Shown: positions 1 through 64,000 of the stretch, in pieces
Numbering within the stretch: position 1 is the stretch's first letter
Layout of the letters: every line of letters starts with the position of its first letter
Assembly: GCA_001783145.1 (NCBI GenBank)
Contig: MFQT01000017.1
Coordinates: 30,119 to 94,118 of the forward strand
Source of the DNA: Candidatus Magasanikbacteria bacterium RIFOXYB2_FULL_38_10
Lineage (GTDB): Bacteria > Patescibacteriota > Patescibacteriia > Magasanikbacterales > UBA10003
Direction of reading: 5' to 3'
Length of the DNA: 64,000 bases
The notes under the pieces: model-generated
Databases searched by the model: none
Told to the model about the DNA's origin: nothing
Seen by the model: only the letters and a program-made list of their open reading frames with translations
Made by a program: the position numbers and the translations under genes

Positions 1-86
1 CTCTCCACCAAAGGCTTTAATGCCAAGTCTTTTAGCTTGTGAATCGCGGCCCAGCGAGGTAGAACTCCCAGCTTTCTTATGTGCCA
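1..86 (-). CDS. rpmA: 50S ribosomal protein L27, N-terminal part (gene runs off the left edge)
   Basis: Reverse complement of 1-86 translates to [29 protein letters not shown], the conserved L27 N-terminus. It is absent from the ORF track because it is truncated. Confidence 0.85.
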
Positions 87-174
87 TATTTGTTTTAAAA
101 TAAGATAATTTTAAGGTAAATACAGTATAAAACAAATCTTGCCTTATGTCAAGAGCTGTGCTAAAATACAGGAT

Positions 175-534
175 ATGTTGCGAATTCCTTTAAAATTGTT
201 TTTTAAAGATAAAATAATTTCTTTTTTAACAGCCCTTAACGTTATTTCTTTTTTGGCTTTATTTTTTTATCTATTTTTTTCCTTGCTTAAAGCTAAAGAA
301 GAAACAATTTTTCTTCATTATACCGTTCATTTGGGCGTAGATTTAATCGGTTCAAAATCAGGTATTTATTTATTGGCTTGGGGTGCTTTTTTAATTGTTA
401 TTTGCAACACTACTGTGGCTTATCTGGCTTACCCTAATTATAAAAAAATCAGCCGTTTGATTTTAATTGCCACCGTGTTTATGCAAATATTTTTGTGGCT
501 AGCCGGTGGATTTTTAGTTTTTATTAATTTATAG
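175..534 (+). CDS. hypothetical small integral membrane protein
   Basis: The ORF is 139-534 with a TTG at 139 and the first ATG at 175. The translation has 3-4 hydrophobic helices. No family recognised. Confidence 0.45.
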
Positions 535-579
535 AAAACGGTTTTTTAAAATAAACTCTTTGTAGATAATAATTTTATT

Positions 580-1638: not shown

Positions 1639-1707
1639 GATAAATTAAAATTTTTTTGTTTTTCCATTTGATAAATTCACCAGAAAATATACCATCAAAT
1701 TTTTCAT

Positions 1708-2808: not shown

Positions 2809-2809
2809 T

Positions 2810-4234: not shown

Positions 4235-4255
4235 TGGTGACCCGGCTGGGGATCG
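4235..4255 (-). repeat. 21-nt exact copy of the tRNA-Lys 3' end (acceptor/T-arm half including CCA); pseudo-tRNA or att-like scar
   Basis: tggtgacccggctggggatcg at 4235-4255 is identical to 4302-4322, in the same orientation. The sequence diverges immediately afterwards and cannot fold as a tRNA. Confidence 0.8.
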
Positions 4256-4301
4256 TGACCAAGCGTACCAGAGAAGCTGTGCAGCGCTTTTGTTTTTTAA
4301 A

Positions 4302-4377
4302 TGGTGACCCGGCTGGGGATCGAACCCAGGACCATCAGCTTAAAAGGCTGTTGCTCTACCAGCTGAGCTACCGGGCC
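4302..4377 (-). tRNA. tRNA-Lys (anticodon UUU), CCA encoded
   Basis: Minus-strand read GGCCCGGTAGCTCAGCTGGTAGAGCAACAGCCTTTTAAGCTGATGGTCCTGGGTTCGATCCCCAGCCGGGTCACCA folds as a 76-nt cloverleaf. Anticodon loop is CTTTTAA and the T-loop is TTCGATC. Confidence 0.9.
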
Positions 4378-4456
4378 GTCACTAGTGTTTAAAAAAACTG
4401 ACAAAAAATTTTAATTGATTTTTTACCAAAAAGTTTCACCCACTAGCATACACCTC

Positions 4457-4485
4457 TTGACAAAATCTGTCAAATGTGCTATGAT
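4457..4485 (+). promoter_or_regulatory. near-consensus sigma70-type promoter upstream of the GC-rich ORF
   Basis: TTGACA (4457-4462), a 17-nt spacer, then TATGAT (4480-4485) preceded by TGc (extended -10). The -35 box lies in the palindrome TTGACAaaatcTGTCAA (4457-4473). Confidence 0.6.
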
Positions 4486-4665
4486 ATGTAGTTAATTTGA
4501 TCTTTGATAATAGGGTGAAGGCTTTGTCCAACCAGATAAGTTTGGCTAAATTAAGGCAAAAATAAAGAAAATAAGATTAAATTTGTCCTAAATAAGCTTG
4601 ATTTATCCGGTTGGGCGAAGGTTTTCGCCCTCTCGAGGAAGGCTCCCCTTAAGGAGCTGTTTGGT

Positions 4666-4671
4666 AGGAGG
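4666..4671 (+). promoter_or_regulatory. Shine-Dalgarno site of the GC-rich ORF
   Basis: AGGAGG lies 5 nt upstream of the ATG at 4677. Native genes in this window lack such motifs. Confidence 0.7.
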
Positions 4672-4676
4672 TTCCT

Positions 4677-6155
4677 ATGGAACTCGTTCGTCAGTTCTTC
4701 GCGGCCCTGGTGTCCATGACGGACACGGCCATCGCGGCCGTGTTCCAGAGCCTGGAGCAGGAGAACGTGCTGACCAGCGCGCGTCTGCGCGCCGCGGTCA
4801 AGAAGAGCGAGGGTAACGAGTTCCGGCGCCTCAAGGTGGCTCTGGGCTATGCCGTGGACCACCAGCTCACCCTCTCCATCGCGAACATCCCGTTCATGAC
4901 GGACGAGGAGCTGGTGCTGGCGTTCCTGGAGGCCACGCCCGACCAGCGCGCCGAGTTCGTGGTGGCGCTGGACGAGATCACCGACGAGAGCGGTGTGCGC
5001 GGTCAGCAGGTGCTCTCCTCCGTGCAGGAGCGCCTCAACATCGAGAAGGCCGTGGCGCAACGCCAGGCCGAGGAGGAGCGTCTGGAGCGCGAGCTGGCCA
5101 AGAAGGCCGCCAGGCGCCTGGAGCTCCTGGAGCACACGGATCGCCTGATCCTGCACATCCTGCGGACCGGCGACGCCTGCGATATGACCGACGAATTGGC
5201 GGTCCAGTACATAGAGGATCAGCCCCTGGGCTACTTCAAGGTGCTCTCGGACATCGCCGGGCTCATCACCCCCGCCACCGCGGCGGAGGGCGAGGCGGCC
5301 CTGACCGGCCTGGACGCGCTGCGCGGCGGCACCATCGTGGACATGCTCACGGGCGCCACCCTGGCGGTGAAGGACGCGCGGAGCATCCGGGGTTGCTTCA
5401 TCACCGACGAGGAGGGCGCCAAGCGCCTCGTCAAGAAGCTCCCGAAGAAGGAGGGGGGAAGGGAGATCTACAGGCACCTGACGGGCGAGAGCCCCGAGGG
5501 TGTCCTGGAACGCCTGGACAGGCACGACGCGGAGTACGCGGCGCGCCAGAAGCGCGACGAGGCCTTCGTGGCCGAGGTGAAGAAGGCGATCGGCGAGGCC
5601 GACGCCACCTTCGTGGCCCTGGCCAAGGCGGTGGCCGAGCTGGTGGAGATCAACTCCGTCGGGACCAGCGGGCCCGAGGAGTGGAAGATGCGGATCATCC
5701 GCGACATCTCCGGCGAGTTCGGCGAGTTCCTGCGGCGGTCCTACATCGGCCAGTTGCGCCAGGCCTACCCCGACGCCTCGACGATCCCGGCGCTCAACGC
5801 CCGGATCGAGGAGGTCAAGGCGGCCTGGAACCAGGCGCGCGCGACGGGCGCCCCCTCCTACGAGCAGGATGCCATCCTCAAGGAGGTCCACGTCCTGGAG
5901 CGGCACCGGCAGTACCTGTCCGAGGCTCCCCAGCTCAAGCCGCAGCAGGGCAAGCCGACCGTCGGCACCCACGCCCACACCAAGGGCAAGGAGGGTGCCC
6001 CGGTCCTGACCGACCACTCCCGCGACGAGGACAGGGAGCGCAAGGAGCGCGAGCGGCGCGACGCCGACCGGAAGCGCACCCTGGACACCAAGGGCAAGGG
6101 CGGCGGCCAGCCCCAGCTCACGGGCAAGGGCAAGCACCAGAAGGGCAAGAAGTAG
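4677..6155 (+). CDS. orphan 492-aa protein on a high-GC island; helix-rich with a lysine/glycine/arginine-rich charged C-terminal tail; function unknown
   Basis: Long ORF with SD plus ATG. 36 of the first 40 codons end in G/C, a strong third-position bias that marks this frame as coding. No TM segment, signal peptide or catalytic motif recognised. Confidence 0.75.
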   Translation: MELVRQFFAALVSMTDTAIAAVFQSLEQENVLTSARLRAAVKKSEGNEFRRLKVALGYAVDHQLTLSIANIPFMTDEELVLAFLEATPDQRAEFVVALDEITDESGVRGQQVLSSVQERLNIEKAVAQRQAEEERLERELAKKAARRLELLEHTDRLILHILRTGDACDMTDELAVQYIEDQPLGYFKVLSDIAGLITPATAAEGEAALTGLDALRGGTIVDMLTGATLAVKDARSIRGCFITDEEGAKRLVKKLPKKEGGREIYRHLTGESPEGVLERLDRHDAEYAARQKRDEAFVAEVKKAIGEADATFVALAKAVAELVEINSVGTSGPEEWKMRIIRDISGEFGEFLRRSYIGQLRQAYPDASTIPALNARIEEVKAAWNQARATGAPSYEQDAILKEVHVLERHRQYLSEAPQLKPQQGKPTVGTHAHTKGKEGAPVLTDHSRDEDRERKERERRDADRKRTLDTKGKGGGQPQLTGKGKHQKGKK

Positions 6156-6285
6156 CCCAGCTACTTCGGCTCCTCAAGTGCCCCCAGTGTCCCTGGCAAC
6201 ATTAACAACGCGGCGGCCAACTAAATAACCGCCCACAACGTCACATGATCTTTCAACAGGTTACAGAGGGTCGCAACGATCCTTA

Positions 6286-6340
6286 CCGGCAATCAAAGTT
6301 CAGTGCTAACACACTGTTCCCACGATTGCCGGTTTTTTTT
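6286..6340 (+). terminator. rho-independent terminator closing the GC-rich cassette
   Basis: Outer stem CCGGCAATC (6286-6294) pairs with GATTGCCGG (6324-6332). Inner stem CAGTG (6301-6305) pairs with CACTG (6312-6316). Followed by T8 (6333-6340). Confidence 0.65.
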
Positions 6341-6365
6341 ATTTCTGCTAAAATGAAGTAAGGAT

Positions 6366-6440
6366 TTTAATAATAAATTTATCTTTTTTGCAGACGATGG
6401 CTTTAGTCCGCGGCGCAAAAAAGATAAATTTATTATTAAA
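6366..6440. repeat. perfect 26-bp inverted repeat with a 23-nt GC-richer loop
   Basis: 6366-6391 (tttaataataaatttatcttttttgc) is the exact reverse complement of 6415-6440. The loop is agacgatggctttagtccgcggc. Confidence 0.85.
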
Positions 6441-6450: not shown

Positions 6451-7029
6451 ATGCCCCTTAATCAAAAATATTTTAAAACCCTTAGTACTGTGTTTGCCGA
6501 TTGGGAAAAGTCCCGCCGCTCTGTTCAAGAAGCCTCGGCCAATGCTTTGCAAAAAGCCAAACAGGCTATTTTTTCTTTTCATCGCAATAATTGGAAAGAG
6601 GCCGAGGTTCTACTTAAAACCGCTTTGGAAAACATTAAAATCGCCGGCAAACTGCAAGAAAAAAGCATTGCCACAGATGATGAAGGAATTTTTAAATCAT
6701 CTTTAGAAGAATATGCCGAAGCTGAATTATTTCGTCAGTTTTTGTATAAAGAAACTATTGGTCCAATAAAAAATTTGGAAATTTCTCCGGAAACATATAT
6801 GGGTGGCCTAGCGGATTTGGTAGGGGAGATTCAGCGTTATGCTATGAAAATGGCCACGGAAAGAAATTTTAGCGAACTAACGCGCGCGGAAAAAGTGACC
6901 GAGGAAATTATGGGCGCAATTTTGTCTTTTAATTTTACCGGTTATCTGCGTACTAAATTTGATCAAGCCAAAGGCGCCCGTCGCAAAATAGAAGAGATCG
7001 CCTACGAAGTAAGTTTGCGTCAAAAATAA
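6451..7029 (+). CDS. translin/TRAX-family protein
   Basis: About 190 aa and all-helical. YMGGLADLVGEIQRYAM matches the translin/TRAX signature (G-x-ADLTGELMR). The ORF opens at 6388, inside the hairpin, and the ATG at 6451 is the likely start. Confidence 0.6.
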   Translation: MPLNQKYFKTLSTVFADWEKSRRSVQEASANALQKAKQAIFSFHRNNWKEAEVLLKTALENIKIAGKLQEKSIATDDEGIFKSSLEEYAEAELFRQFLYKETIGPIKNLEISPETYMGGLADLVGEIQRYAMKMATERNFSELTRAEKVTEEIMGAILSFNFTGYLRTKFDQAKGARRKIEEIAYEVSLRQK

Positions 7030-9614: not shown

Positions 9615-10013
9615 ATGCAAAAAAGGTCTTTGGCGGGAAAAATTGGAAAGAACCGACTTTTTATAGTTGTGGTAAGTATTTTTTTAATCTTATTTTTAAT
9701 TGGTTTTCTGCGTTCTTTTTGGCGGGATTATCAAATAAGAAAAGAAATAAAGGACATGCAGGAGGAAAGAATTCGTTTAGAGGGTCAGAAATTAAAAACT
9801 TTGGATTTTCTTAATAATTTACAAGGAGACAACGAAGCAGAAAAAGAAGCACGATTAAATTTTGGTTTGGCTAAACCGGGTGAACAGGTGGTGATTATTG
9901 CCGGTGGATTGCAAAAGACTACTGAAAAAAATAATAATGAAGAAAAACGAGAAGAAAATAATTCAAATATGATCTTGTGGTGGAGATATTTTTTCGCGCC
10001 CAAGAATAATTAA
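9615..10013 (+). CDS. septum formation initiator (FtsB/DivIC-like)
   Basis: Single N-terminal TM helix, a coiled coil, then the NFGLAKPGEQVVII motif typical of the FtsB/DivIC family. Confidence 0.55.
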   Translation: MQKRSLAGKIGKNRLFIVVVSIFLILFLIGFLRSFWRDYQIRKEIKDMQEERIRLEGQKLKTLDFLNNLQGDNEAEKEARLNFGLAKPGEQVVIIAGGLQKTTEKNNNEEKREENNSNMILWWRYFFAPKNN

Positions 10014-11043: not shown

Positions 11044-11115
11044 GCGGGTATCGTATAGTGGCTATTATGCATCCTTCCCAAGGATGAAAGACGGGTTCGA
11101 TTCCCGTTACCCGCT
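11044..11115 (+). tRNA. tRNA-Gly (anticodon CCC), CCA not encoded
   Basis: Acceptor GCGGGTA/TACCCGC, anticodon arm CATCC-TTCCCAA-GGATG, T-arm ACGGG-TTCGATT-CCCGT. Confidence 0.85.
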
Positions 11116-11119
11116 TTGG

Positions 11120-11192
11120 GCCGATGTAGCTCAGTTAGCAGAGCAACGGTATCGTAAACCGTGGGTCGTGGGTGCAAGTCCCACCATCGGCT
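11120..11192 (+). tRNA. tRNA-Thr (anticodon CGU), CCA not encoded, unusual T-loop
   Basis: Acceptor GCCGATG/CATCGGC, D-arm GCTC-AGTTAGCA-GAGC, anticodon arm ACGGT-ATCGTAA-ACCGT, T-arm GTGGG-TGCAAGT-CCCAC. Confidence 0.8.
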
Positions 11193-11210
11193 TTGGATAA
11201 AGTTTTTCCT

Positions 11211-12936: not shown

Positions 12937-13028
12937 TTGTAAAAATAGCAGCTTTAAAGGCTGTTATTTTTTATCTTTTTAGCCAACCTTGACTAAAGGC
13001 ATTCTTTTTGGTATAATCTGCATATTAT

Positions 13029-14822
13029 ATGGAAATTAGAAATATCGCCATTATTGCGCATGTAGATCACGGCAAAACCAAATTGACCGATGCTCTAATG
13101 CGTCAAACAGGCATGGTGACGGATGAAAAAATAAGCATGGATTCTAACGCTCTGGAAAAGGAGCGTGGTATTACTATTTACTCAAAAAATACCAGTGTGT
13201 TTTATAAGGGTACCAAAATCAACATTGTGGACACTCCCGGACACGCGGATTTTGGTTCCGAGGTAGAGCGTGTTTTGCGTTCTATCGATTCGGTTCTTTT
13301 AATTGTGGATGCCCAGGAAGGGCCAATGCCTCAAACCAAATTTGTCTTAAAAAAATCTTTAGAATTAGGTTTAAAACCAATTGTGGTAATCAATAAAATT
13401 GATAAACCGGCCGCCAGACCAGAGTGGACACATGATAAGGTTTTGGAACTTTTTATGGATTTAGGAGCAACAGATGAACAACTGGATTTTACAACTGTTT
13501 TTGCCATTGCTAAACAGGGGATTGCCAAGATGAAATTAACAGATGAATCAACTGATTTAAGCCCTCTTTTAGATGCCATTTTGACCAAAGTTCCTCCGGT
13601 TAAAGCAGATGTAATGTTGCCTTTCACTTTCCAGCCTTTTAATTTGGCCTATGATAATTATTTGGGTCGTTTAGGTATTGGCAGAATTTATCAAGGAACT
13701 TTAAAAGATGGAGATAAGGTTTTTATTAAGAAACAAGACGGAGAAATCATTTCTGGCTATGTCAACAAAATATTCACTTTTGAGGGTGTCACTCGTAAGG
13801 AAGTTATGGAAGCTGTGGCCGGAGATATTGTAATGATTGCCGGTCTACCTCAAATTTATATTGGTGATACTATTTGTGCCGAGCAAAATCAAGAATTGTT
13901 ACCGGCGATTAAAATTGATGAACCGACAATTTCTTTAAACTTTTTAGTCAATAATTCTCCTTTTGCCGGGCAAGAAGGAAAGTATGTCACTAGCCGTCAA
14001 ATTAAAGAACGTTTAGAAAAAGAATTGGAAGTTAATGTGGGGTTAAAAATAGATTTTTCCGCCATTGATTTTTTTAAAGTTAATGGGCGCGGTGAATTAC
14101 ATGTGGCTATTTTGTTAGAAAATATGCGTCGCGAAGGTTTTGAAGTTCAAGTTTCCCAGCCTCAGGTAATTATCAAACAAATTGATGGAGTAAAATGCGA
14201 GCCGTTTGAAGAGGTGACTATTGATGTACCGCCGGAATGTGTTGGTACGGTAATAGAAAAGATGTCTAAAAGAAAAGGGCAAATGAAGTCAATGAATCCA
14301 GAACAAAATCACACTCGTTTAATTTATGAAATTCCTACTCGTGGCTTGCTTGGCTATCGTTCGGAATTTATTGTTGATACTCGTGGAGAAGGTATTTTGT
14401 GCAGTGAAATGGTTGGCTTCAAGCCTTACGTTGGAGAAATTTCTAAACGCGACGTTGGGTCTATGGTTTCTGGCGAAACCGGCAAGGTTTTGGCCTATTC
14501 TTTATCCAATTTACAAGAGCGCGGCGTGTTGTTTGTCGGGGCCAATACAGACGTTTATGAAGGCGAGGTTATTGGTAACACTGCTAAAGGACAAGATATG
14601 ACAGTCAATCCCATTAAAGGAAAACATCTTACCAATATGCGTTCTTCCAATTCCGACATGGCCATTCAATTTACACCACCAATGGAATTAACTTTGGAAC
14701 GCGGTTTGGAAATTATGGCTGAAGATGAATACTTAGAAATTACGCCTAAAAGCATTCGTTTGCGCAAACAGTTTTTAACAGAAAATGATCGTTTGCGTTT
14801 TGCCCGTAAAAATTCCAAATAA
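13029..14822 (+). CDS. typA: translational GTPase TypA/BipA
   Basis: [27 protein letters not shown] and NKID GTPase motifs. The length and domain order match BipA. Confidence 0.9.
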
Positions 14823-15724: not shown

Positions 15725-15814
15725 ATTTTTTGTTTATTTTTACTTGACAAGAAAGTGTAATTATGGTGAGATGGATGTAGTTCCATAACCTTGCCATAAA
15801 ACGAGGAGAATCAC

Positions 15815-16111
15815 ATGGATTCTGTAACCAAGAAGCCTGCTCACGAGGTCATTCTCCGGCGTGTTGAAGAGACTACCGACATGTTAATGAAAAACTATCC
15901 TTTTGAGAGTGCTCTAGTTGGCTTGTACTGTAGTATCATTCTTGTGGTAGGGAAAGATCTTGTGCGTATTTTGTGGGAAATGAATATTCCGCCACAAGAT
16001 ATTGATGGAGTTTGTTTGCGACTTCTAGATACTGCGGAATGTGCGAATGTTCCTGGTTTGGAAGATTGGGTATCTCTTTTAATCTCCTTAGTTGAAGAGC
16101 TTAAAAATTGA
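15815..16111 (+). CDS. orphan 98-aa protein in its own transcription unit
   Basis: GAGGAG SD (15803-15808) lies 6 nt before the ATG. Candidate promoter TTGACA at 15744-15749 and a strong terminator at 16173-16203. G+C is visibly above the neighbours. No family recognised. Confidence 0.5.
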   Translation: MDSVTKKPAHEVILRRVEETTDMLMKNYPFESALVGLYCSIILVVGKDLVRILWEMNIPPQDIDGVCLRLLDTAECANVPGLEDWVSLLISLVEELKN

Positions 16112-16172
16112 TACTAGTCAGGAAATCGATCTTTAATTAAATTGAAACTAAAAACTAACTTTTAGACCGTTT

Positions 16173-16203
16173 GCCCATTCGAGACTACTCGAGTGGGCTT
16201 TTT
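16173..16203 (+). terminator. rho-independent terminator
   Basis: 11-bp stem GCCCATTCGAG/CTCGAGTGGGC (one G-U pair), loop ACTA, then TTTTT. Confidence 0.7.
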
Positions 16204-21582: not shown

Positions 21583-21771
21583 ATGAAACCAGTTGTAGAT
21601 AAAGATAAATGTATTGGTTGCGGGGTTTGCATCGCACTTTGCCCTACGTCTTTTAAATGGGATGAGAGTGGAGTTAAGGCTGAGTCAGTAAATGCTTCGG
21701 GAGACACAGAAGAAATGATTAAAGGGGCAACGGAAGCATGTCCTGTGCAGGCAATTAGTTTGGGAGAGTAA
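21583..21771 (+). CDS. small [4Fe-4S]-type ferredoxin
   Basis: CIGCGVCIALCP plus a distal ACP motif in 62 aa. Confidence 0.75.
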   Translation: MKPVVDKDKCIGCGVCIALCPTSFKWDESGVKAESVNASGDTEEMIKGATEACPVQAISLGE

Positions 21772-25529: not shown

Positions 25530-25787
25530 ATGATAATTCAACCGCCCAAAAAAAAATCCAGCGATCGCGCATACTATTTATTTGCTTTGCGTATTGTTGG
25601 CGATTTTGGAATCGCTATCGCCCTGCCGGCGGTTTTGGGGGCAATTTTAGGAAGATATTTGGATGAAAAATATGGTCGCTCCGCTCTCTTTACCATCTTT
25701 TGTCTAATTGTGGCATTTTTAATCACCATAAGTATTGTTTATAAAAAAGCCAAACTTTACGGTGGTGAATATCAAAAAATGAAATAA
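25530..25787 (+). CDS. AtpZ/AtpI-like small membrane protein
   Basis: 85 aa with two TM helices, immediately upstream of atpB. Confidence 0.45.
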   Translation: MIIQPPKKKSSDRAYYLFALRIVGDFGIAIALPAVLGAILGRYLDEKYGRSALFTIFCLIVAFLITISIVYKKAKLYGGEYQKMK

Positions 25788-25799: not shown

Positions 25800-26576
25800 A
25801 TGCATATCCCGGAATTACCACCAGATATTTTATTCCATCTCGGAAACATTTCCATTACTAACACCATGATAAATGTTTGGCTGGCGATTATAATTTTTTT
25901 GATTTTAGGTCTGACATTACGCCGAAAAATATCATTACGACCGGGAAAATTACAAAATATCTGCGAATATTTCTTGGAGGTTATTTTAGATTATTTTGAT
26001 CAAGTGACGGGAGACAGAAAAAAGACAAGACGCTTTTTGCCTATTGCCGGTTCTGTCTTCTTTTTTATTTTGCTCTCTAATTGGCTGGGGTTATTGCCCG
26101 GTACCGGCAGTATTACTTGGGGTCATACTATGCTACTTCGTCCAGCCAATACCGATTTAAATTTAACCGTAGCTATGGCTCTTTCGGCAGTGGTTCTATC
26201 ACATCTTTTTGGTTTATTTACTGTTGGTGTTTTTACCCATCTAAACAAATTTATTCAAATCAAGGGTTTAATTAAAAGCTTAAAGCACGGTCCGGTGGCA
26301 ATTTTTGCCGCTTTGGTAGAAATGGTAGTGGGTGTTATAGAAATTATCAGTGAAATTGCCAAGGTTCTTTCACTTTCCTTGCGTCTTTTTGGTAATATTT
26401 TTGCCGGAGAAGTTTTAATTTCCGTCATCTCCGCTTTATTTGCAGCTATAATGCCAACTCCGTTTATGTTATTGGAATTATTGGTTGGTTTAATTCAGGC
26501 CGCGGTTTTTACCATGTTGACCTTGGTGTATTTAACAGTTATGACCACTGCGCCACACGGGGAAGAAGAGCACTAA
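25800..26576 (+). CDS. atpB: ATP synthase Fo subunit a
   Basis: Polytopic protein with the conserved LSLRLFGNIFAGE arginine helix. Confidence 0.85.
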   Translation: MHIPELPPDILFHLGNISITNTMINVWLAIIIFLILGLTLRRKISLRPGKLQNICEYFLEVILDYFDQVTGDRKKTRRFLPIAGSVFFFILLSNWLGLLPGTGSITWGHTMLLRPANTDLNLTVAMALSAVVLSHLFGLFTVGVFTHLNKFIQIKGLIKSLKHGPVAIFAALVEMVVGVIEIISEIAKVLSLSLRLFGNIFAGEVLISVISALFAAIMPTPFMLLELLVGLIQAAVFTMLTLVYLTVMTTAPHGEEEH

Positions 26577-26668
26577 ATAAACTAATTAATTAATAAATAA
26601 TTTATAGTGATCTTTGCGAGGCTAAAATTTTTCCCCCTCGTGGAAATTACTAAGAAAGGTCAAAAAAT

Positions 26669-26890
26669 ATGGATCACGAATCAGTCGTAGCCTTAGCTAA
26701 AGCCTTTACCATGGGTATCGGTACAATTGCTCCGGCCTTGGGTATTGGTAAATTGGTGGCCAAAGCCATGGAAGCTATTGGTCGTAACCCAGAAGCATCT
26801 GGTAAAATATTTGTTCCGATGTTACTTGGCGCCGCTTTTGCGGAAGCTATTGCCATTTACGCTTTGGTGGTTGTTTTCACCTTGAAATAA
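26669..26890 (+). CDS. atpE: ATP synthase Fo subunit c
   Basis: 73-aa hairpin with the GIGxxG loop region, RNPE, and the carboxylate helix AFAEAIAIYALVV. Confidence 0.85.
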   Translation: MDHESVVALAKAFTMGIGTIAPALGIGKLVAKAMEAIGRNPEASGKIFVPMLLGAAFAEAIAIYALVVVFTLK

Positions 26891-27022
26891 TTCAAGAAGT
26901 TAGATCAGTTATAAAATTGGTCTAACTAAATGGAATTATTTGTGAAATGAGTGAGAGAAAAACAAAATTTTGTTTTTCCGAGCGAATGAGCAAATATAAT
27001 CCACTATATTTTAAAAAAAATT

Positions 27023-27598
27023 ATGAATTTTATTGATATCGCTTGGGCATCTTCAGAAGAAGAAGCCACAACGCTAGAACAAACTTCAAATTCAGGTCAA
27101 GAAAGCGTGGCCGCTTCTTTGGGTTTGAATGGCCAATTATTCGCCTTTCAGTTGCTTAATTTTGTTATTGTGGCTGTGGTTATCTGGTTTTTGATCTTGA
27201 AACCTTTAGTCAAACAATTAGAAGAGCGCCGAAAAATTATTGATGAAAGTTTGAATAAGGCCAAAAAAATTGATGAAAATATGGCGCAAAGCCAGGCTGA
27301 ATTTAGTGCTAAATTGGATGAAGCTAGAGGAGAAGCTAATAAAATCATTGAAAAAGCCGGAATTGAAGCTGATAATTTGGTTGGAGAAATAAAAATTAAA
27401 TCTAAAAAAGAAATAGAAGGATTAGTTGAGCAAGCTAAACGCAATATAAAAATCGAACAGGAAGAAATGTTACTTAGTCTTAAAGCAGAAACAGCTGAAT
27501 TGGTTGTAGCGGCAGTGGAGAAAATTTTAGAGGAAAAATTAAACGATAAAAAAGACAAAGAATTAGTTGAAAGCGCCTTAAAAGATTTGAAAAAATAG
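27023..27598 (+). CDS. atpF: ATP synthase Fo subunit b
   Basis: One TM helix followed by a long charged helix. Operon position supports the call. It has a ~35-aa acidic N-terminal extension. Confidence 0.75.
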   Translation: MNFIDIAWASSEEEATTLEQTSNSGQESVAASLGLNGQLFAFQLLNFVIVAVVIWFLILKPLVKQLEERRKIIDESLNKAKKIDENMAQSQAEFSAKLDEARGEANKIIEKAGIEADNLVGEIKIKSKKEIEGLVEQAKRNIKIEQEEMLLSLKAETAELVVAAVEKILEEKLNDKKDKELVESALKDLKK

Positions 27599-27615
27599 TC
27601 AGCAGTGATTTATTT

Positions 27616-28002
27616 ATGAAGAAAAAAATTAGTAACAAACAATTTGCCAGTGCCTTGTGTGAAATTACAGAGGGTTTAAAAGGTGAACGATTGCGTGAAA
27701 CGATTAAGCAGTTTGTTTTGTTGCTGGTAAAATATCACAAATTAAAACAAGGCGCGCGGATTATTGTGGAATTTGAAAAATATGCTAAAAAGCAAGCGGG
27801 TGTAGTGGAAATAGAAATTACTTCAGCACGAAAATTATCTGAAACTACTTTGAATCACATTAAAAAAATCTTTGGCGAACATACTGAGTCAGTAGAAAAT
27901 GTTGATGAAGCGCTTTTAGGTGGCATGAAAGTAAAAACCGAAGATAAAATTTTAGACGCTTCATTAAAAACACAATTAAATATTTTAAAACAAAAATTGT
28001 AA
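27616..28002 (+). CDS. atpH: ATP synthase F1 subunit delta (short form)
   Basis: Operon position and the C-terminal OSCP-like LLGGMKVKTEDKILDAS motif. Only 128 aa. Confidence 0.6.
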   Translation: MKKKISNKQFASALCEITEGLKGERLRETIKQFVLLLVKYHKLKQGARIIVEFEKYAKKQAGVVEIEITSARKLSETTLNHIKKIFGEHTESVENVDEALLGGMKVKTEDKILDASLKTQLNILKQKL

Positions 28003-28015
28003 TTAAATTTGAATT

Positions 28016-29503
28016 ATGTCTACCAATACTATAGTAAACGAACTAAAAAAACACATTGCTGAATTTGAAAAAACTGTGCAAGTGGAAGAAATTGGCACAG
28101 TAATTGAAGTCGGCGATGGCATTGCCCGTATGTCTGGCTTGACCAAGTGTCAATATCAGGAAATGTTAGAGTTTCCGGGTGAAGTATTCGGTGTGGCTTT
28201 GAACTTGGAAGAAGAAACTGTCGGCGCCATGATTTTGGGTGATTTTAAAAAGATTAAAGAAGGCGACACAGTAAAACGCACTGGCCGTATTTTGTCTGTA
28301 CCGGTTGGACCGGAAATGGTTGGCAGAGTAGTAAATGCTTTGGGGCAGGCAATTGATGGTAAAGGCGAAATCAAGACCAAACAATTTTATCCAGTAGAAA
28401 AAATTGCTCCGGGCGTAATGACTCGCCAAGGTGTGCATCAACCAGTGCAAACTGGTATCAAAGCTATTGACGCCATGATTCCAATTGGCCGCGGACAACG
28501 TGAATTGATTATCGGCGACCGCCAGACTGGCAAGACTGCTATTGCTGTGGATACCATTATCAATCAAAAAGGCCAGAACATGAAATGTATATATGTGGCA
28601 GTCGGGCAAAAAGAATCCAAAGTCGCGCGTATTTTTGCTAAATTGCAAGAAACTGGCGCTATGGAATATACCACCATTGTCGTGGCCGGTGCTTCAGACC
28701 CAGCTTCAATGTCATATATTGCTCCTTATGCTGGCGTGGCCATGGCCGAATATTTTGCTGACCAAGGTGAAGATGTTTTGGTGGTTTATGATGATTTAAC
28801 TAAACAAGCTTGGGCTTATCGTGAAATTTCACTCTTGCTCCGCCGCCCACCAGGACGCGAAGCTTATCCAGGTGATGTTTTTTATTTACACTCACGCCTT
28901 TTGGAACGCGCTTGCAAATTAAACAAAGAAAATGGTGGTGGTTCTATTACTGCTCTGCCAATTATTGAAACTCAAGCCGGTGATGTAACTGCTTACATCC
29001 CCACAAATGTAATTTCCATTACTGATGGCCAGATCTTTTTGGAAACTGATCAATTTTACAAAGGTATTCGCCCTGCCTTGAATGTGGGTATTTCTGTTTC
29101 TCGCGTGGGCGCTGCTGCACAGATTAAGTCTATGAAAAAAGTGGCCGGTAAATTAAAATTGGCTATGGCTCAATTTCGTGAGTTGGAAGCCTTTGCCCAA
29201 TTTGCCTCTGATTTGGATCCGGAAACCAAAAAGCAAATTGATTTGGGACAGAGAATGACCGAATTATTAAAACAACCTCAATATAGCCCGATGCCGGTAG
29301 TCAATCAGGTGGCTGTCATTTATGCGGTAAGTAATGGTTATTTTAATAAATTTACTGTGAAAGAAGTGGCCGAGCAAGAAAAGAAGTTTATTGATTTTGT
29401 AAATCGTTCCAAACGCGCATTGCTGGAGAAGCTGGCAAAAGGGGATTGGGATGAAATGGTTGAGAAAGAATTAAAAGAAGCCTGTGAAGAATTTATCAAG
29501 TAA
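28016..29503 (+). CDS. atpA: ATP synthase F1 subunit alpha
   Basis: GDRQTGKT Walker A, plus [31 protein letters not shown]. Confidence 0.95.
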
Positions 29504-29505
29504 TT

Positions 29506-30459
29506 ATGGCAGTCAACACTAAAGCAATTAAACGCCGCATTAAATCCGTGGGCAATACCAAAAAGATTACCAAAGCCATGGAAATGGTGTCGGCAGCCAA
29601 GATGAGAAAAGCCGTGGACGCGGCTGTTAAAACCCGCGCTTATGCTGCATTGGCTTGGAATTTGCTTGTAAATTTATCAAAGACGCAAAAAGTCAGCTTG
29701 CCTTTGTTAGAAGTGCGTCCGGTTAAAAATATCTTAATCATTTTAATTACTTCCAATAAAGGTTTTTGCGGAAGTTTCAATAGTAACATTATTAAAAAAA
29801 CAGCTGAACAGTTGTTGAATCCCAGTAATCTTGCCAAACAACGTATTAAAGAAGTGAATGCTGAGCCAAGCACAGAAATTAATGTTGACATTTTGGGAAT
29901 TGGCAAGAAAGGATCGGAATTTATCAGGCGCTTAGATAAAAATTTAATTGCCGCTTTTACTGATCTGCCCGATACACCGTGCTTGAATGATGTCTTGCCG
30001 GTGAGTCAGATGATCATTGATGCTTACAAGGAAAAAAAGTATGATAAGGTGGTGGTAGCCTATACAGATTTTAAATCAGCTATTACTCAAATTGCCAAAT
30101 TGCGTCAGGTTTTGCCAATTTCTGAATTTGATTTGGAAAAAATGATTACTGATTTGGGTAAAAATTTACCGGCTGGTTCCACAAAACCGGAAATGGAATT
30201 GAATGAATATTTGTTTGAACCGGATCGCGATGAAATCTTGTCAGTTATCCTGCCGCGCTTAGTGGAGACACAAATTTATCAGGCAGTTTTGGAATCTTCC
30301 GCTTCGGAACAAAGTGCCCGTATGATGGCTATGCGCAATGCTTCCGATGCCGCCGAAGATATGATTAAAGATTTGAGTTTAGCTTTTAATAAAGCCCGTC
30401 AAGCCGGTATTACTCAGGAAATTGCCGAAATTAGTGGTGGCGCGGCGGCGCTTGGATAA
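29506..30459 (+). CDS. atpG: ATP synthase F1 subunit gamma
   Basis: N-terminal IKRRIKSVGNTKKITKAMEMVSAAKMRKA and C-terminal ITQEIAEISGGAAAL. Confidence 0.9.
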   Translation: MAVNTKAIKRRIKSVGNTKKITKAMEMVSAAKMRKAVDAAVKTRAYAALAWNLLVNLSKTQKVSLPLLEVRPVKNILIILITSNKGFCGSFNSNIIKKTAEQLLNPSNLAKQRIKEVNAEPSTEINVDILGIGKKGSEFIRRLDKNLIAAFTDLPDTPCLNDVLPVSQMIIDAYKEKKYDKVVVAYTDFKSAITQIAKLRQVLPISEFDLEKMITDLGKNLPAGSTKPEMELNEYLFEPDRDEILSVILPRLVETQIYQAVLESSASEQSARMMAMRNASDAAEDMIKDLSLAFNKARQAGITQEIAEISGGAAALG

Positions 30460-30464
30460 TATAA

Positions 30465-31874
<1,410 letters not shown>

Positions 31875-31879
31875 CTTTT

Positions 31880-32335
31880 ATGCAAAAAATAGATTTACAA
31901 ATTACAACTCCTGAAGGTGTAGCTTATAAAGCCAGTGACATTGACGCTATTTCTTTGCCTACTAGCACGGGTGAAATTACTATTTTACCAGGCCATATTC
32001 CTTTAGTTTCCGCCTTGATTGCCGGTGAGGCTCGTATAAAAAGAGGGGAAGAAACTGAATTTTTAGCAGTTTCCGGAGGTTTTATAGAGGTCCAACCCAA
32101 TTTTAAAGTGGTGGTTTTGGCAGACACGGCCGAAAGAGCAGAACATATTGACATAGATAGAGCCAAAAAGGCCAGACAAAAAGCAGAAGAGTTGATGAAA
32201 CAAAAACACGTCAATGACGTTGAATATGCGGCTTTGACCTCCAAAATTGAAAGAGAAATGGCTCGTGTTAAAGTGGCGCGCCGTCATAAGGCGCATCGTA
32301 CGCCGGGGGAGTTTATAAAAACTGACGACGAATAA
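31880..32335 (+). CDS. atpC: ATP synthase F1 subunit epsilon
   Basis: Beta-sandwich N-terminus (ITILPGHIPLVS) and a helical C-terminus with a basic extension. Last gene of the operon. Confidence 0.8.
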   Translation: MQKIDLQITTPEGVAYKASDIDAISLPTSTGEITILPGHIPLVSALIAGEARIKRGEETEFLAVSGGFIEVQPNFKVVVLADTAERAEHIDIDRAKKARQKAEELMKQKHVNDVEYAALTSKIEREMARVKVARRHKAHRTPGEFIKTDDE

Positions 32336-42021: not shown

Positions 42022-42128
42022 AAATATTTAATCTTTTAATTTGCTTGATCTTTATCTTAAAATGGGCTATAATCTTTAAAAGGCCGTTTGATAAATTTAA
42101 AACAAAAAACGGATATTATTATAATAAT

Positions 42129-60419: not shown

Positions 60420-60450
60420 CCCCCTGCCTCTTTAAAGAAGAGGCAGGGGG
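60420..60450 (-). terminator. GC-rich hairpin downstream of tRNA-Ser
   Basis: 13-bp perfect stem CCCCCTGCCTCTT/AAGAGGCAGGGGG with a 5-nt loop. The minus-strand downstream tail is moderately T-rich. Confidence 0.55.
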
Positions 60451-60503
60451 GGATTACCCTTAAAGTTATCCCCCAATTAATAAAAAATCCGAATTCTGAA
60501 AAT

Positions 60504-60591
60504 TGGCGGAAGGTGAGGGATTCGAACCCTCGATACCTTGCGGTATGCACGCTTTCCAAGCGTGTGCACTAGACCACTATGCGAACCTTCC
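60504..60591 (-). tRNA. tRNA-Ser (anticodon GGA), CCA encoded
   Basis: The minus-strand read runs GGAAGGTTCGCATAGTGGTCTAGTGCA, then CACGCTTGGAAAGCGTG, then CATACCGCAAGGTATC, then GAGGGTTCGAATCCCTC, then ACCTTCCGCCA. It has a long variable arm and the anticodon loop TTGGAAA. Confidence 0.9.
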
Positions 60592-61341
60592 TTTTTTAAT
60601 TTTTTTCAGCAACTTCAAACCAATAAAAACTAAAATTAAACTCCCCCATTGCGCCACGGTAAAGCCACCATATCTTGCATCAGCTCCGGCAATATCATCA
60701 GCTCGTAAAAAATCCAGTAAAAATCTGCCCATACCATACCACAAAAACAGCCGAGAAGACAAGAGGCCGGACGTAGATAACATTTTAAGACCCTTTAAGG
60801 CAAAAATAATTAAAAGTGGCACTAACATCAATATCTCCAATAAGGCCATATCTAACCTGGGCCCACTGGTAAAATTAATAGCCAAAAAAGAGTTAAATAA
60901 AACACCCAAATGATCATGAATTAACAAACAACCCATTCTTCCCACTGTCCAACCAAAAGGAAAAACAAAAGCCAATATGTCTAAGTAATGCCAATCAATT
61001 TTTTTCTTGTACCAAAACCAAAATAATATTATTCCCACTCCCGCAAAACCGCCAAAAGAATCCAAACCACCTTGCCAAATTTTAAAAATCTCCAGTGGAT
61101 GCCAAAGATAAAAATTCCGGCTGTTTTCTAAAAAAACATAAAATAATCTTCCTCCAACCAAAGAGGCGATGATAATCCAAATCAATAAATTCAGAAGTCT
61201 ATCTTTATTTAATTTTTGCTTTTTAACCAACCAAGAAGCCAAAAAAGTGCCAATCAAAAAACCCAAAGAAACAAACAAGCCCCAAGATTGAATTTTTAAA
61301 AATCCTATTTGCCAACCGGTTGTGCCAAAAAAGGGTATCAT
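60577..61341 (-). CDS. lgt: prolipoprotein diacylglyceryl transferase
   Basis: Polytopic protein with GGRLFY, GGLDSFGG and GRMGC motifs typical of Lgt. Its 3' end overlaps tRNA-Ser by ~15 nt. Confidence 0.8.
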   Translation of the reverse strand: MIPFFGTTGWQIGFLKIQSWGLFVSLGFLIGTFLASWLVKKQKLNKDRLLNLLIWIIIASLVGGRLFYVFLENSRNFYLWHPLEIFKIWQGGLDSFGGFAGVGIILFWFWYKKKIDWHYLDILAFVFPFGWTVGRMGCLLIHDHLGVLFNSFLAINFTSGPRLDMALLEILMLVPLLIIFALKGLKMLSTSGLLSSRLFLWYGMGRFLLDFLRADDIAGADARYGGFTVAQWGSLILVFIGLKLLKKIKKGRFA

Positions 61342-62711
61342 TTTGCTAATTTAGGTATATATTGTTCCGCTTCTTCAACACTATCAACAATTTTATACAA
61401 ATCAACATATTCCGGAGCAATAGTGTCATATTTTTTAAGCAAGGTCTCGCGGATAAATTTATCCAAAGGTTCCCAATACTTTTTGCCGTATAAAAGCACA
61501 GTCATCTCGCTCATTTTTTTAGTTTTCATCAAAGTTAAAACCTCAAACAACTGGTGTAGAGTTCCAAAACCGCCGGGAAAGAATATAAAGGCCTTGGAAG
61601 GAACGGTCAGCATTAATTTTCTAATATAAGGAAAATTAAAACTTAAAGATTTGGTAAGATATTGATTAGTTCTGGCCACATCCTCAAATTTTAAACTAAA
61701 ACCGATGGATTCAGCACCGGCTTCTTTGGCGCCTTTACTAGCCGCCTCCATAATCCCTGGGCCGCCACCGGTAATTACCATGTATCCCTTCTTGCCTAAA
61801 TTAAAAGACATTTTTTCCGCCGCTTGGTAATAAGGACTTTCCGCGCCCAAACTATTGGTACCCAAAATAGTAATATCATCTCTAACTTCGCGAGTTAAGA
61901 ATTCAAATCCCTCCACCACCTCCGCCATGATTCTAAAAATTCGCCAATTCATTGTTTGAGCGCAATGCGGATCGGCGGGATCCGATGGATCACATAAAAC
62001 CTTATGCACTCCCGACCGACGGACAATTTCCACAGCCTCCTCGGCCGAATCAACTACTTGCAGTAAATCAAGATGGGTTTGACTGATGGATCCAATTAAT
62101 TCCAATGGGCTTTGTTTTAAAAAGTCAATTAAAGGATTCCAAAAATCTTTGCCCACAGCAATAACCGGAATTTTTTTAACTTTGCCGATTTCTATTAAAT
62201 CCAAAAGTTCAAAAATTTCATCCATGGTACCATAACCGCCGGGAAAAAAAATAGCGGCTTCGGCCGGTGAAACCAGCATTATTTTTCTGATAAAAAAGTA
62301 ATTAAAACCGGCATTCTTGGTTACGTAAGGATTAAGAATCTGCTCCTCGGGTAGTTGAATGGAAATAGCCACTGATTCCGCACCGGCTTCTTTTGCTCCC
62401 CTATTGCCCGCCTCCATTACTCCCGGTCCTCCACCGGTAATTACCGCGTAACCCTGTTTTCCCAAAAATAAACCGCATTCACGCGCTTCTTTATAAGCAA
62501 AAGAATCTTCTGTAGAACGAGCTGAGCCAAAAATAGTGGCGGTTTTTTCAAATTTTCCCAGTAATTGATAGCCGGAAACGAATTCCGACATAATTCTAAA
62601 AATTTGCCAAGTATCCCTGTAGTTTACCGGCTCATGAAATTTTTCAAAAATACGAGCCTTTTGTTCAAACAGACTGTGATAATGATGCGGACTGATTTTT
62701 CTTTTAAACAT
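61338..62711 (-). CDS. tandem LOG/TIGR00730-family (Rossmann nucleotide-binding, 'lysine decarboxylase-like') protein
   Basis: Two repeats each carry ITGGGPG(V/I)MEA...GAKEAGAES. The PGGxGTxxE motif reads PGGYGTMDE in the first repeat and PGGFGTLHQ in the second. Confidence 0.7.
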   Translation of the reverse strand: MFKRKISPHHYHSLFEQKARIFEKFHEPVNYRDTWQIFRIMSEFVSGYQLLGKFEKTATIFGSARSTEDSFAYKEARECGLFLGKQGYAVITGGGPGVMEAGNRGAKEAGAESVAISIQLPEEQILNPYVTKNAGFNYFFIRKIMLVSPAEAAIFFPGGYGTMDEIFELLDLIEIGKVKKIPVIAVGKDFWNPLIDFLKQSPLELIGSISQTHLDLLQVVDSAEEAVEIVRRSGVHKVLCDPSDPADPHCAQTMNWRIFRIMAEVVEGFEFLTREVRDDITILGTNSLGAESPYYQAAEKMSFNLGKKGYMVITGGGPGIMEAASKGAKEAGAESIGFSLKFEDVARTNQYLTKSLSFNFPYIRKLMLTVPSKAFIFFPGGFGTLHQLFEVLTLMKTKKMSEMTVLLYGKKYWEPLDKFIRETLLKKYDTIAPEYVDLYKIVDSVEEAEQYIPKLAK

Positions 62712-62717
62712 AAAATA

Positions 62718-64000
62718 TTAGTTATTGATTTTTTCTATTCTCTCTCCGATTGATAACAGAAAATTTTCGGAAAAATGCGGCCCAATGATCTGCAAACCCA
62801 CAGGTAATTTATCTACCAAACCATTAGGAACAGATAAAGCGGGCAAACCGGCTAAATTGACCGGCGCGGTATAAATATCGGATAAATACATCTGTAATGG
62901 ATCATTACTTTTTTCCCCTATCTTAAAAGCCGTGGAGGGAGCAGTGGGAGTAATTAAACAATCCACTTCTTTAAAAACTTTTTCAAAATCTTCTCTGACT
63001 AAATTTTGTACTTGTTTGGCTTTTTTGTAGTAGGCGTCATAATAACCGGAGGATAAAGCAAAAGCACCTAGCATTATTCTCCTCTTTGCCTCTGCCCCAA
63101 AACCCGTAGCTCGACTTTTTTTATAAACACCTTTTAAATCTTCCCCTTTATTCCTTATAGACAAACCATATTTTATACCATCAAACCTGGCTAAATTAGA
63201 CGAAACTTCAGCGGGCATAATTAAATAATAAGACGCCAGAGCGTATTCGGAATTGGGTAGAGTTACTTCTTTTATTTTTGCGCCCTCTGCTTTTAGCAGT
63301 TCTACTTTTTTTAAAATATTATTTTCTACTTTGGCATCTAATCCCTTGGCAAAATATTCTTTGGGCAGACCGATGGTTAGGTTTTTTAAAACTTTTTCTT
63401 TTGAATCTTTAAAATTTTTAGATGTGGCATCCTTTTCATCCCGGCCTTTTAAAATTTCAAATAAAACTTTGGCATCTTCTACATTATTGGTTAAAGGCCC
63501 AATTTGATCCAATGACGAAGCCATAGCCATAAGACCGTAGCGTGAGACGGCTCCATAAGTTGGTTTTAAACCAACCAGATTGCAAAAAGCTGCGGGCTGA
63601 CGAATTGAGCCTGCGGTATCGGAACCAAGGGCGGCCGCGCACATGCCGGCGGCCACTGCAGCGGCCGAACCTCCGGAAGAACCTCCTGGAACCCTTTCTA
63701 AATCATAAGGGTTCCTGGTTATTCCATAAGCGCTATTTTCCGTAGAAGATCCCATAGCAAATTCATCCATATTGGTGCGCCCAATTATAATAGCCCCGGC
63801 ATCTTTTATTTTTTTAACAGCCGTGGCGGTATAAGGAGAAACAAAATTCTCTAAAATTTTAGAGCCGGACGAAGCAAGGTGCCCCTCGTAAAGCAAATTA
63901 TCTTTAAGAGCCATGGTAATCCCATCTAAAGCTCTCATGCTTTCCCCTTTTTTAATTTTTTCGTCAACTTTTTTGGCTTCTGCCAAAGCCTCTTTTTCAA
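62718..64000 (-). CDS. gatA: Asp/Glu-tRNA amidotransferase subunit A (N-terminus beyond the right edge)
   Basis: Amidase signature GGSSGGSAAAVAAG and KDN...; the reading frame stays open through 64000, and the track's start at 63986 is a TTG. Confidence 0.85.
   Translation of the reverse strand, partial: EKEALAEAKKVDEKIKKGESMRALDGITMALKDNLLYEGHLASSGSKILENFVSPYTATAVKKIKDAGAIIIGRTNMDEFAMGSSTENSAYGITRNPYDLERVPGGSSGGSAAAVAAGMCAAALGSDTAGSIRQPAAFCNLVGLKPTYGAVSRYGLMAMASSLDQIGPLTNNVEDAKVLFEILKGRDEKDATSKNFKDSKEKVLKNLTIGLPKEYFAKGLDAKVENNILKKVELLKAEGAKIKEVTLPNSEYALASYYLIMPAEVSSNLARFDGIKYGLSIRNKGEDLKGVYKKSRATGFGAEAKRRIMLGAFALSSGYYDAYYKKAKQVQNLVREDFEKVFKEVDCLITPTAPSTAFKIGEKSNDPLQMYLSDIYTAPVNLAGLPALSVPNGLVDKLPVGLQIIGPHFSENFLLSIGERIEKINN

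Follow-up and report, generated by a model that had tools for sequence, protein, structure and literature searches.

Initiation at structure-poor starts with short leaders or none is found in Actinobacteria, Deinococcus and the "group C" genomes of GeneMarkS-2. Initiation without a Shine-Dalgarno (SD) sequence depends on an unstructured start region, and unstructured starts were reportedly treated by Scharff et al. in 2011. In the Bacteroidia, bS21, bS18 and bS6 mask the anti-SD sequence so that ribosomes ignore SD sequences, and a strong SD precedes a single gene, rpsU, in a feedback loop (PMC7797042, PMC9976891, PMC13000453). The Parcubacteria without the CCTCCT motif overlap the subgroup lacking uL1, with no statement made for the Magasanikbacteria (Tsurumaki et al. 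2022, PMC9297842). Here we describe a 64,000-nt stretch of Candidatus Magasanikbacteria bacterium RIFOXYB2_FULL_38_10, a groundwater member of the candidate phyla radiation (CPR) with a tiny genome, from contig MFQT01000017.1 (forward strand, positions 30,119 to 94,118; the whole stretch is called "the window"). Ordinary genes of the window carry no SD sequence, and one very GC-rich gene (4677-6155) carries a strong one. An initial annotation had taken this SD, and a second one before a small orphan gene, as signals imported together with foreign genes. The observations are probably better accounted for by an SD-free CPR lineage holding one resident gene cassette, locked at high G+C and dependent on its SD, with a mechanistic link between the SD and the structure of the transcript.

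Ordinary genes start without SD sequences

The 20 nt upstream of 58 open reading frame (ORF) starts were scored against the canonical anti-SD sequence 5'-ACCUCCUUU-3'. Strong and well-placed SD sequences preceded only two starts, 4677 and 15815, the same two that the initial annotation had singled out, and their motifs lie where it had put them (AGGAGG occupies 4666-4671, leaving 5 nt to the ATG at 4677; GAGGAG occupies 15803-15808, leaving 6 nt to the ATG at 15815). The elements concerned are:

4666-4672, plus strand: SD sequence AGGAGGT, 4-5 nt before the ATG, -10.9 kcal/mol
4677-6155, plus strand: gene for a 492-aa protein, G+C 0.69 (0.69, 0.42 and 0.95 at codon positions 1, 2 and 3: GC1, GC2 and GC3), product mostly helical with a basic Gly/Lys-rich tail
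15803-15808, plus strand: GAGGAG, 6 nt upstream of the orphan ORF, -8.7 kcal/mol
15815-16111, plus strand: orphan ORF of 98 aa (an ORFan) of host-like composition, followed at about 16165-16200 by a hairpin and T-run resembling a terminator

The next-best start (9005, -5.9 kcal/mol) owes its score to a GGAG at -20 to -17, which is too distant and lies within the preceding gene. No hidden SD was found at plausible starts when any alternative start within the first 40 codons was permitted, and the SD was also missing at three small gap genes (a ferredoxin at 21583, an 85-aa ORF at 25530 and atpE at 26669).

Native starts fell below the background in their affinity for the anti-SD. The mean free energy of pairing was -0.39 kcal/mol for the 56 native starts; all 20-mers outside the GC-rich island averaged -1.78, and the sites preceding 860 internal ATGs averaged -2.5 (Mann-Whitney p=2e-9). 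Values of -4.5 or lower were found at 3.6% of native starts, against 14-20% in the background sets. The upstream regions contain 19% GC at -20 to -1 and 9% G at -15 to -1. This depletion bears out the earlier statement that native genes lack the SD, and the gene identities given with it stood as well, Pfam agreeing for the atp operon, mreB, greA, clpB, mraY, ftsW, typA, nifU, rsmI and metG. Two examples used below are:

12989-13031, plus strand: typA promoter TTGACT-17-TATAAT, ending 11 nt before the ATG, an example of a very short or absent leader in a first gene
25800-32335, plus strand: ATP synthase operon (atpB, E, F, H, A, G, D and C; Pfam), an example of native and presumably well-expressed genes without SD

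Free energies upstream of the ATP synthase genes were between -3.7 and +2.0 kcal/mol. In three loci of related Magasanikbacteria (L004, L020 and L021; fetched loci are designated by L and a number), some 29 additional native genes likewise lacked the SD and carried T at position -1, and the SD-less pattern was found in the native genes of L004, L006, L008/L021 and L013/L020. SD-poor initiation is thus a trait of the lineage, as had been proposed, and the ordinary genes of this Magasanikbacteria lineage were shown to have no SD at their predicted starts.

Form of the native start regions

In place of an SD, T (U in the transcript) occupied position -1 in 49 of 55 native starts (89%; starts corrected, e.g. 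580, 7043, 13029 and 30498), against 26% before internal ATGs. One possible basis of this T(-1) is an extended pairing with A37 in the initiator tRNA. No alternative ribosome-binding motif beyond T(-1) emerged from k-mer enrichment upstream of native starts. The start regions were weakly folded, with a minimum free energy (MFE, -30 to +30) of -4.0 +/- 2.8 kcal/mol, compared with -8.3 for 60-mers inside the same genes.

Hexamers resembling TATAAT ended 5-12 nt upstream of real starts 5.5-fold more often than upstream of internal ATGs (0.26 per start and 0.048 per ATG respectively), e.g. in typA, rsmI and the genes at 9615, 32858 and 49090. A -10 box so near the ATG in about one quarter of the genes would leave the mRNA almost without leader, and we therefore infer that many first genes would have leaders of about 0-6 nt.

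The longest-ORF start of a 525-aa gene (TTG 42045) overlaps a good promoter (TTGATC-17-TATAAT, window 42045-42100), so the true start of this gene probably lies further downstream. The TTG/GTG longest-ORF starts at 6388, 11172, 19628, 33489 and 58878 are probably not real starts.

The SD of the GC-rich gene is conserved

The window has a G+C content of about 0.36, with a single exception, a block at 4.6-6.3 kb with 0.66-0.73. The GC-rich gene in this block had a G+C of 0.688 and a GC3 of 0.953 (z=+8.6 and +14.4 respectively, with respect to 52 native genes). Codons rare in the host dominate (CTC, CGG, and AAG 33 times with AAA never), the usage resembles that of a high-GC organism (AAG, CTG/CTC, GCC, CGC), and the amino acids are of the GC type as well (GARP, i.e. 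Gly, Ala, Arg and Pro, 0.31 vs. 0.225).

Homologues were sought with a profile search that covered 1.84 billion representative proteins, and DNA was fetched for 9 of the 10 matches and for the NCBI homologue P0003. The search returned 10 proteins in all, and the nine with DNA were all in cassette contexts of CPR type. A word-indexed search gave three proteins, one of them identical and the others sharing about 40% identity, and L013 was additionally found by its promoter pattern in a GTDB Magasanikbacteria genome. Together these sequences make up 11 lineages: the window, L004, L005, L006/7, L008/21, L009, L010, L013/20, L022, L023 and L024. Protein-pattern scans of GTDB genomes, JGI metagenomes and IMG/VR detected no further members, and a metagenome promoter scan gave nothing beyond the L013 and L008 lineages again. 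None of the fetched copies was in a GC-rich genome, and no GC-rich donor was found among the 1.84 billion representatives.

An SD-like element was found in all 11 lineages, 4-9 nt before the ATG and with free energies between -8.6 and -12.3 kcal/mol. In the six closest lineages GGAGGT was invariant, while the spacers and the adjacent leader sequence varied. An SD in 11 of 11 lineages, compared with about 1% of random ATGs, is therefore kept by selection and is not a relic of a donor. The invariance of GGAGG(T) implies that these ribosomes would have a usable CCUCC tail. With a working anti-SD implied in this way, the question raised earlier, how SD-bearing genes are translated in this host, becomes sharper.

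The GC-rich gene is a resident of the clade

The gene occupied the same slot in the window, L004, L006, L008/L021 and L013/L020, without patchiness among these relatives. A promoter of the form CTTGACAAA...TGnTATAnT preceded it in all 10 lineages for which the 5' flank was available, a tRNA-Lys(UUU) gene was divergent from it in four (the window, L004, L013/L020 and L008/L021), and a translin-family gene was found downstream in five (directly so in the window, L004, L006 and L013, and with one gene in between in L008). The gene exceeded the available flanking sequence by 15-34 G+C points in 9 of the 11 lineages. It was not elevated in L009 (0.53 in the gene, 0.55 in the flanks), and in L010 (0.51) the flank of only 50 nt was too short to judge.

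Flanking proteins of the window and L004 shared 51-89% identity, with synonymous sites saturated (proportion of synonymous differences, pS, 0.65-0.82; synonymous divergence, dS, 1.5 to >2). The GC3 of the GC-rich gene was nevertheless 0.95 in the window and 0.99 in L004. Its pS (0.36) was below that of the neighbours, and its nonsynonymous divergence (dN, 0.52) was 2.5-6 times that of the neighbours. Among conserved four-fold codons, 22 of 64 differed by swaps between C and G and so stayed within G/C, which shows that the gene has long evolved while constrained to these two bases.

In the close pair L006/L013, dS was 0.90 for the GC-rich gene and 0.81 for translin; gene and translin have therefore probably been co-resident since these lineages split. 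The GC-rich gene evolved about 9 times faster than translin in this pair, with a dN/dS of 0.26, a value that points to purifying selection on the 492-aa protein. No integrase or transposase and no flanking att repeats were found, and the GC-rich segment consists of one ORF on the 5' side of tRNA-Lys. Taken together, the comparative data argue that the GC-rich gene is resident and clade-specific, not a recent import.

The same junctions were present in independent assemblies (the GW2011 and RIFOXYB2 genomes and the Logan assembly SRR3309152, and also JGI), and homologous cassettes were present in at least 8 further datasets. TypA of the window (13029-14822) is identical to a protein on the 292-kb contig LBYK01000001.1 (GCA_000996105.1), where the window corresponds to about 131.8-195.8 kb. 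The source names of identical proteins were Candidatus Magasanikbacteria GW2011_GWC2_4... and RIFOXYB2_FULL_38, i.e. CPR/Parcubacteria of the Rifle aquifer.

In the annotation of LBYK01000001.1 the locus is represented by a minus-strand ORF of 528 aa (4551-6137). Its G+C peak falls on codon position 1 and its GC3 is 0.68, against 0.95 in the plus-strand frame, and it was rejected as a shadow frame. The Logan assembly calls the correct plus-strand ORF of 492 aa. Calls on the wrong strand may conceal other members of the family from protein databases.

The orphan gene at 15815

The initial annotation had described both SD-bearing genes as compositionally atypical. This is correct for the GC-rich gene and does not apply to the orphan, whose G+C (0.407; native range 0.24-0.45) and GC3 (0.354) are ordinary (z=+1.3 and +0.9 vs. 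the 52 native genes). Homologues of the orphan were absent among 5.8 billion proteins, in which it was the sole member of its family. Sites of -8 kcal/mol or lower at -16 to -4 occurred before 15 of 1576 ATGs outside the island (0.95%), so that about 0.5 would be expected among 57 starts. The SD of the orphan is for this reason not distinguishable from chance, and may be a chance occurrence.

Organization of the cassette

The gene is embedded in a compact unit with the following elements besides its SD:

4237-4262, minus strand: partial second copy of the tRNA-Lys 3' end, some 40 nt past the tRNA and thus on the side opposite to the GC-rich gene (ggtgacccggctggggatcgtgacc vs. ggtgacccggctggggatcgaaccc)
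4302-4377, minus strand: tRNA-Lys(UUU), divergent from the GC-rich gene (ARAGORN and Rfam)
4473-4445, minus strand: promoter toward tRNA-Lys, 10 of 12 matches, its -35 box overlapping that of the GC-rich gene
4457-4485, plus strand: near-consensus sigma-70 promoter TTGACA-17-TATGAT with TG extension, 11 of 12 matches in the promoter scan
4493-4676, plus strand: structured 5' leader (about 184 nt) containing a long hairpin at about 4511-4634, an invariant TGGGCG at 4612-4617 and a short GC hairpin at 4641-4658 just before the SD
6156-6340, plus strand: GC-rich 3' untranslated region (UTR) with an intrinsic terminator (stem 6286-6294 / 6324-6332, then a T-run)
6451-7029, plus strand: translin-family gene (PF01997), the conserved downstream neighbour, with its own TGnTAAAAT promoter (6326-6354) and no SD

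The palindrome formed by the overlapping -35 boxes, TTGACAAAAnnTGTCAA (4445-4485), was kept in most lineages for which the promoter sequence was available, and transcription of the GC-rich gene and tRNA-Lys may be coupled or mutually exclusive. The partial copy of tRNA-Lys is a 25-nt imperfect repeat and resembles the scar of an old integration or excision event.

The leader was strongly folded (z-scores of -6.6 for the window and -7.5 for L004). TGGGCG was located 62-79 nt before the ATG in 7 of 9 lineages scanned, and also in L013, so that 8 lineages have a structured leader with TGGGCG. The short GC hairpin was likewise present in 8 lineages, varying in sequence yet always paired, and was followed by an A/U run and then the SD. 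RNAalifold on a MAFFT alignment of the whole leader recovered the structure in parts only, and the leader gave only generic miRNA-like hairpin matches in Rfam and no family. By its form it could be an attenuator or a stabiliser. Sequestration of the SD, as in a thermometer, was also considered and rejected: local folds around the SD were no more stable than shuffled sequences (z -1.4 to +0.7). At the 3' end, a TTAACA..GCGG element and the terminator were kept in L004 and L005.

Since the translin-family gene has a separate promoter and a terminator lies between the two genes, their adjacency may be only conserved gene order. The translin-family gene itself is in a neighbourhood of cell-wall and division genes (mraY-ftsW-murG ... 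murC-like ligase, divIC, ftsE/X).

AlphaFold on 11 sequences predicted a mostly helical protein with a small beta element and a disordered basic Gly/Lys tail (pLDDT, the per-residue confidence score, 78.5, compared with 61 for a model from 3 sequences). No significant match of the 492-aa protein and its leader was obtained in Pfam, PDB, known folds or Rfam.

The window contains five tRNA genes (ARAGORN, Rfam). Two of them, tRNA-Gly(CCC) and tRNA-Thr(CGU), are in tandem at 11044-11193, and the same pair was found in L004. The codons they decode all end in G, a class that native genes use rarely and the GC-rich gene often.

A proposed role for the SD

The most structured starts of the window were the two with an SD: MFE was -17.1 kcal/mol for the GC-rich gene, about 4.7 standard deviations from the native mean, and -10.1 kcal/mol for the orphan. 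A start as GC-rich as that of the 492-aa gene would fold strongly, so that the open, A/U-rich route used by other genes would not be usable, and its mRNA would have to attract the 30S subunit through SD:anti-SD pairing. High G+C and the SD would then be tied by mechanism and not by joint import.

Several points weigh against this interpretation. The link between structure and SD is a correlation, drawn from two genes of the window and from general knowledge. Start codons and leaderless status are predictions. Neither the window nor any of the 24 loci fetched contains an rRNA gene from which the anti-SD could be read, and only 48% of Parcubacteria yielded the CCTCCT motif (PMC9297842). The trees of the cassette also disagree: L004 is nearest to L006/L013 by translin (88%) and nearest to the window by the GC-rich protein (41% vs. 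32%). Inheritance was thus likely not simply vertical, with exchange within the clade or strong differences in rate. The origin of the family could be foreign if ancient, and the interpretation does not account for the G+C lock.

Some further SD sequences were encountered in the fetched loci. An inserted M28 peptidase-like gene with AGGAGGT and a G+C of 0.47 (L008, 2031-3578, minus strand), the GC-richest neighbour, is located between the GC-rich gene and translin and fits either reading of the pairing of SD with G+C, by function or by joint arrival. An HD-domain gene with GGAGG and a G+C of 0.48 was found in a GC-richer relative (L024, 1675-2394). SD use may track local G+C across the clade.

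The promoter pattern also matched seven unrelated strong promoters. Near-identical sequences (TTGACAAAAGTTGTAAAATTTGCTATAGTA) occurred in four genomes of Saccharibacteria type (L012, L015, L016 and L018), and three of these four matches were followed, about 50-210 nt further downstream, by an ORF starting with MAKKKK. A match in Buchananbacteria (L017) was followed by GGGAGGTG, an SD; SD use therefore appears to differ between CPR lineages.

Origin and composition of the cassette

The high G+C is a property of the whole family, with GC3 values of 79-99% across lineages in genomes of 35-45% GC. The enrichment covers GC1 (0.69), the 3' UTR and the proximal leader, and stops sharply at the terminator and inside the leader. 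Such a pattern indicates a constraint on the transcript or DNA segment and not a translational choice of codons. A force acting on the nucleic acid itself, either selection or biased conversion, would hold the G+C and would constrain synonymous sites more than the protein. Tentatively, and with a good deal of doubt, we suggest that the composition of the DNA or mRNA is itself selected, e.g. because such a transcript would be stable, or would escape A/U-directed RNases or spurious initiation driven by A/U, and would be read via a separate SD-dependent channel. If this were true, extreme compositional atypicality would not mean foreign origin, and the anti-SD would persist in an SD-less lineage for the sake of a few special mRNAs.

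Two other histories, each rather unlikely, retain a role for selection or conversion in the present state of the gene. The ancestor of the Magasanikbacteria clade might have acquired it once, long ago, from a GC-rich, SD-using donor, with G+C and SD kept by selection ever since. The GC-type amino acids and the high GC1 would suit such an origin, and the distant members, which are less GC-rich (0.53 in L009 and 0.51 in L010), leave the starting state unclear. Neither the pattern scans nor the profile search left any trace of a donor family, however, the promoter is of host type, as is the AT-rich portion of the leader, and the same unexplained force holding the G+C would still be required, so that this history adds little.

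It is similarly improbable that the cassette is a recombination hotspot swapped between related lineages, in which GC-biased gene conversion raised the G+C and the SD was kept for expression only. The disagreement between the gene tree and those of the neighbours favours this possibility, as does the G+C enrichment of UTRs and of codon positions 1 and 2. In every lineage comparison, moreover, the coding part diverged faster, and much so, than the conserved flanks, which would be able to guide recombination. In contrast, the G+C plateau does not decay into the flanks and ends sharply at the terminator and inside the leader, and the equal dS of gene and neighbour in the close pair L006/L013 makes it improbable that replacement was frequent in that pair. 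To our knowledge, a GC3 of 0.99 in a genome of 40% GC is far beyond the effects reported for GC-biased gene conversion in bacteria.

The account given in the initial annotation, in which the GC-rich ORF and the orphan are recent imports from a GC-rich organism using SDs and still show unameliorated donor signals, now appears very unlikely. It was a natural one in view of the extreme G+C and GC3 of the GC-rich gene, its codon usage typical of high-GC organisms, the adjoining tRNA gene with a partial tRNA-Lys repeat nearby, and an orphan without homologues. For the GC-rich gene it is contradicted by the same slot and the same AT-rich, host-type promoter cassette in lineages whose neighbouring genes are synonymously saturated, by the dS values of the close pair (0.90 vs. 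0.81), by an SD common to all 11 lineages, and by the absence of a donor homologue among 1.84 billion proteins. In addition, integrase and att repeats are lacking, and it is the 5' side of the tRNA, and not the 3' end, that the gene adjoins. The ordinary composition of the orphan also tells against this account; the orphan itself may or may not be foreign.

Hardly more credible is a circuit of specialised ribosomes like that of rpsU in Bacteroidia, with a masked anti-SD and the GC-rich protein or its mRNA in a feedback loop read by SD-competent ribosomes. A lone conserved gene with a strong SD in an SD-less genome does recall rpsU in Flavobacterium johnsoniae (PMC13000453, PMC9976891), bS21 is often absent from Parcubacteria (PMC9297842), and the 492-aa protein has a very basic C-terminal tail. 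This protein, however, is not similar in sequence or fold to ribosomal or ribosome-binding proteins beyond generic helical hairpins, and evolution about 9 times faster than that of the neighbour would be unusual for a component of the ribosome. An assembly chimera or contamination, i.e. a GC-rich fragment misjoined into a CPR contig, might be read from the abrupt change in composition and can practically be dismissed on account of the identical junctions in independent assemblies and samples.

Comparison with known systems

No description of this cassette was found in the literature on Magasanikbacteria with translin or GC-rich, or on CPR with SD or leaderless. The resident, SD-dependent cassette proposed here has likenesses to several known systems. 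It shares with the Bacteroidia the genome-wide absence of SDs (here in the scanned window and related loci), the A/U-rich starts and the very few genes with a strong conserved SD, which implies an anti-SD that is present and serves a special purpose. It differs in the phylum (CPR/Parcubacteria), in U at -1 where the Bacteroidia have upstream adenines, and in the SD gene, which encodes a 492-aa protein and not bS21 and whose extreme G+C is without parallel in the Bacteroidia; the masking of the anti-SD is a finding from the Bacteroidia. As a parallel to rpsU, a lone conserved SD gene in an SD-less genome offers a handle on the retention of the anti-SD. The Parcubacteria that lack the anti-SD (PMC9297842) belong to the same superphylum, which would explain SD-less initiation as a possible trait of CPR lineages, whereas the conserved GGAGG(T) of the GC-rich gene argues for a retained, functional anti-SD.

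Leaderless and short-leader systems resemble the native genes of the window in the -10 box 5-12 nt before the ATG in about one quarter of the genes and in the weakly folded starts. Unlike in those systems, genes internal to operons are here also SD-less and would rely on A/U-rich junctions, and the very strong preference for U(-1) is unusual. An SD-free style of initiation in a CPR lineage, with U(-1), open A/U-rich starts and very short leaders, bears on gene calling.

Deviant G+C and codon usage, the adjoining tRNA-Lys and the partial tRNA repeat are features of horizontally acquired islands linked to tRNA genes. In contrast to such islands, the segment is a single gene without integrase, on the 5' side of the tRNA with overlapping promoters, in the same slot in 5 of 5 related lineages and with no donor family known. 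It would thus be a counter-example to the rule that atypical G+C beside a tRNA gene means recent horizontal transfer, an outlier kept in place while the synonymous sites of its neighbours saturated.

GC-rich structural RNA genes in AT-rich genomes, for which Klein, Misulovin and Eddy are said to have screened in 2002, also have a G+C held far above the genome by a constraint on the nucleic acid, as rRNA and tRNA genes show. The segment described here differs in coding for a protein, with a periodicity of GC3 0.95 vs. GC2 0.42, conserved protein blocks and a dN/dS of 0.26. The force that keeps this gene 30 points above the genome G+C is testable with existing metagenomic population data. An SD-poor lineage with rare SD genes is a known situation; what is added here is an unusual compositional constraint.

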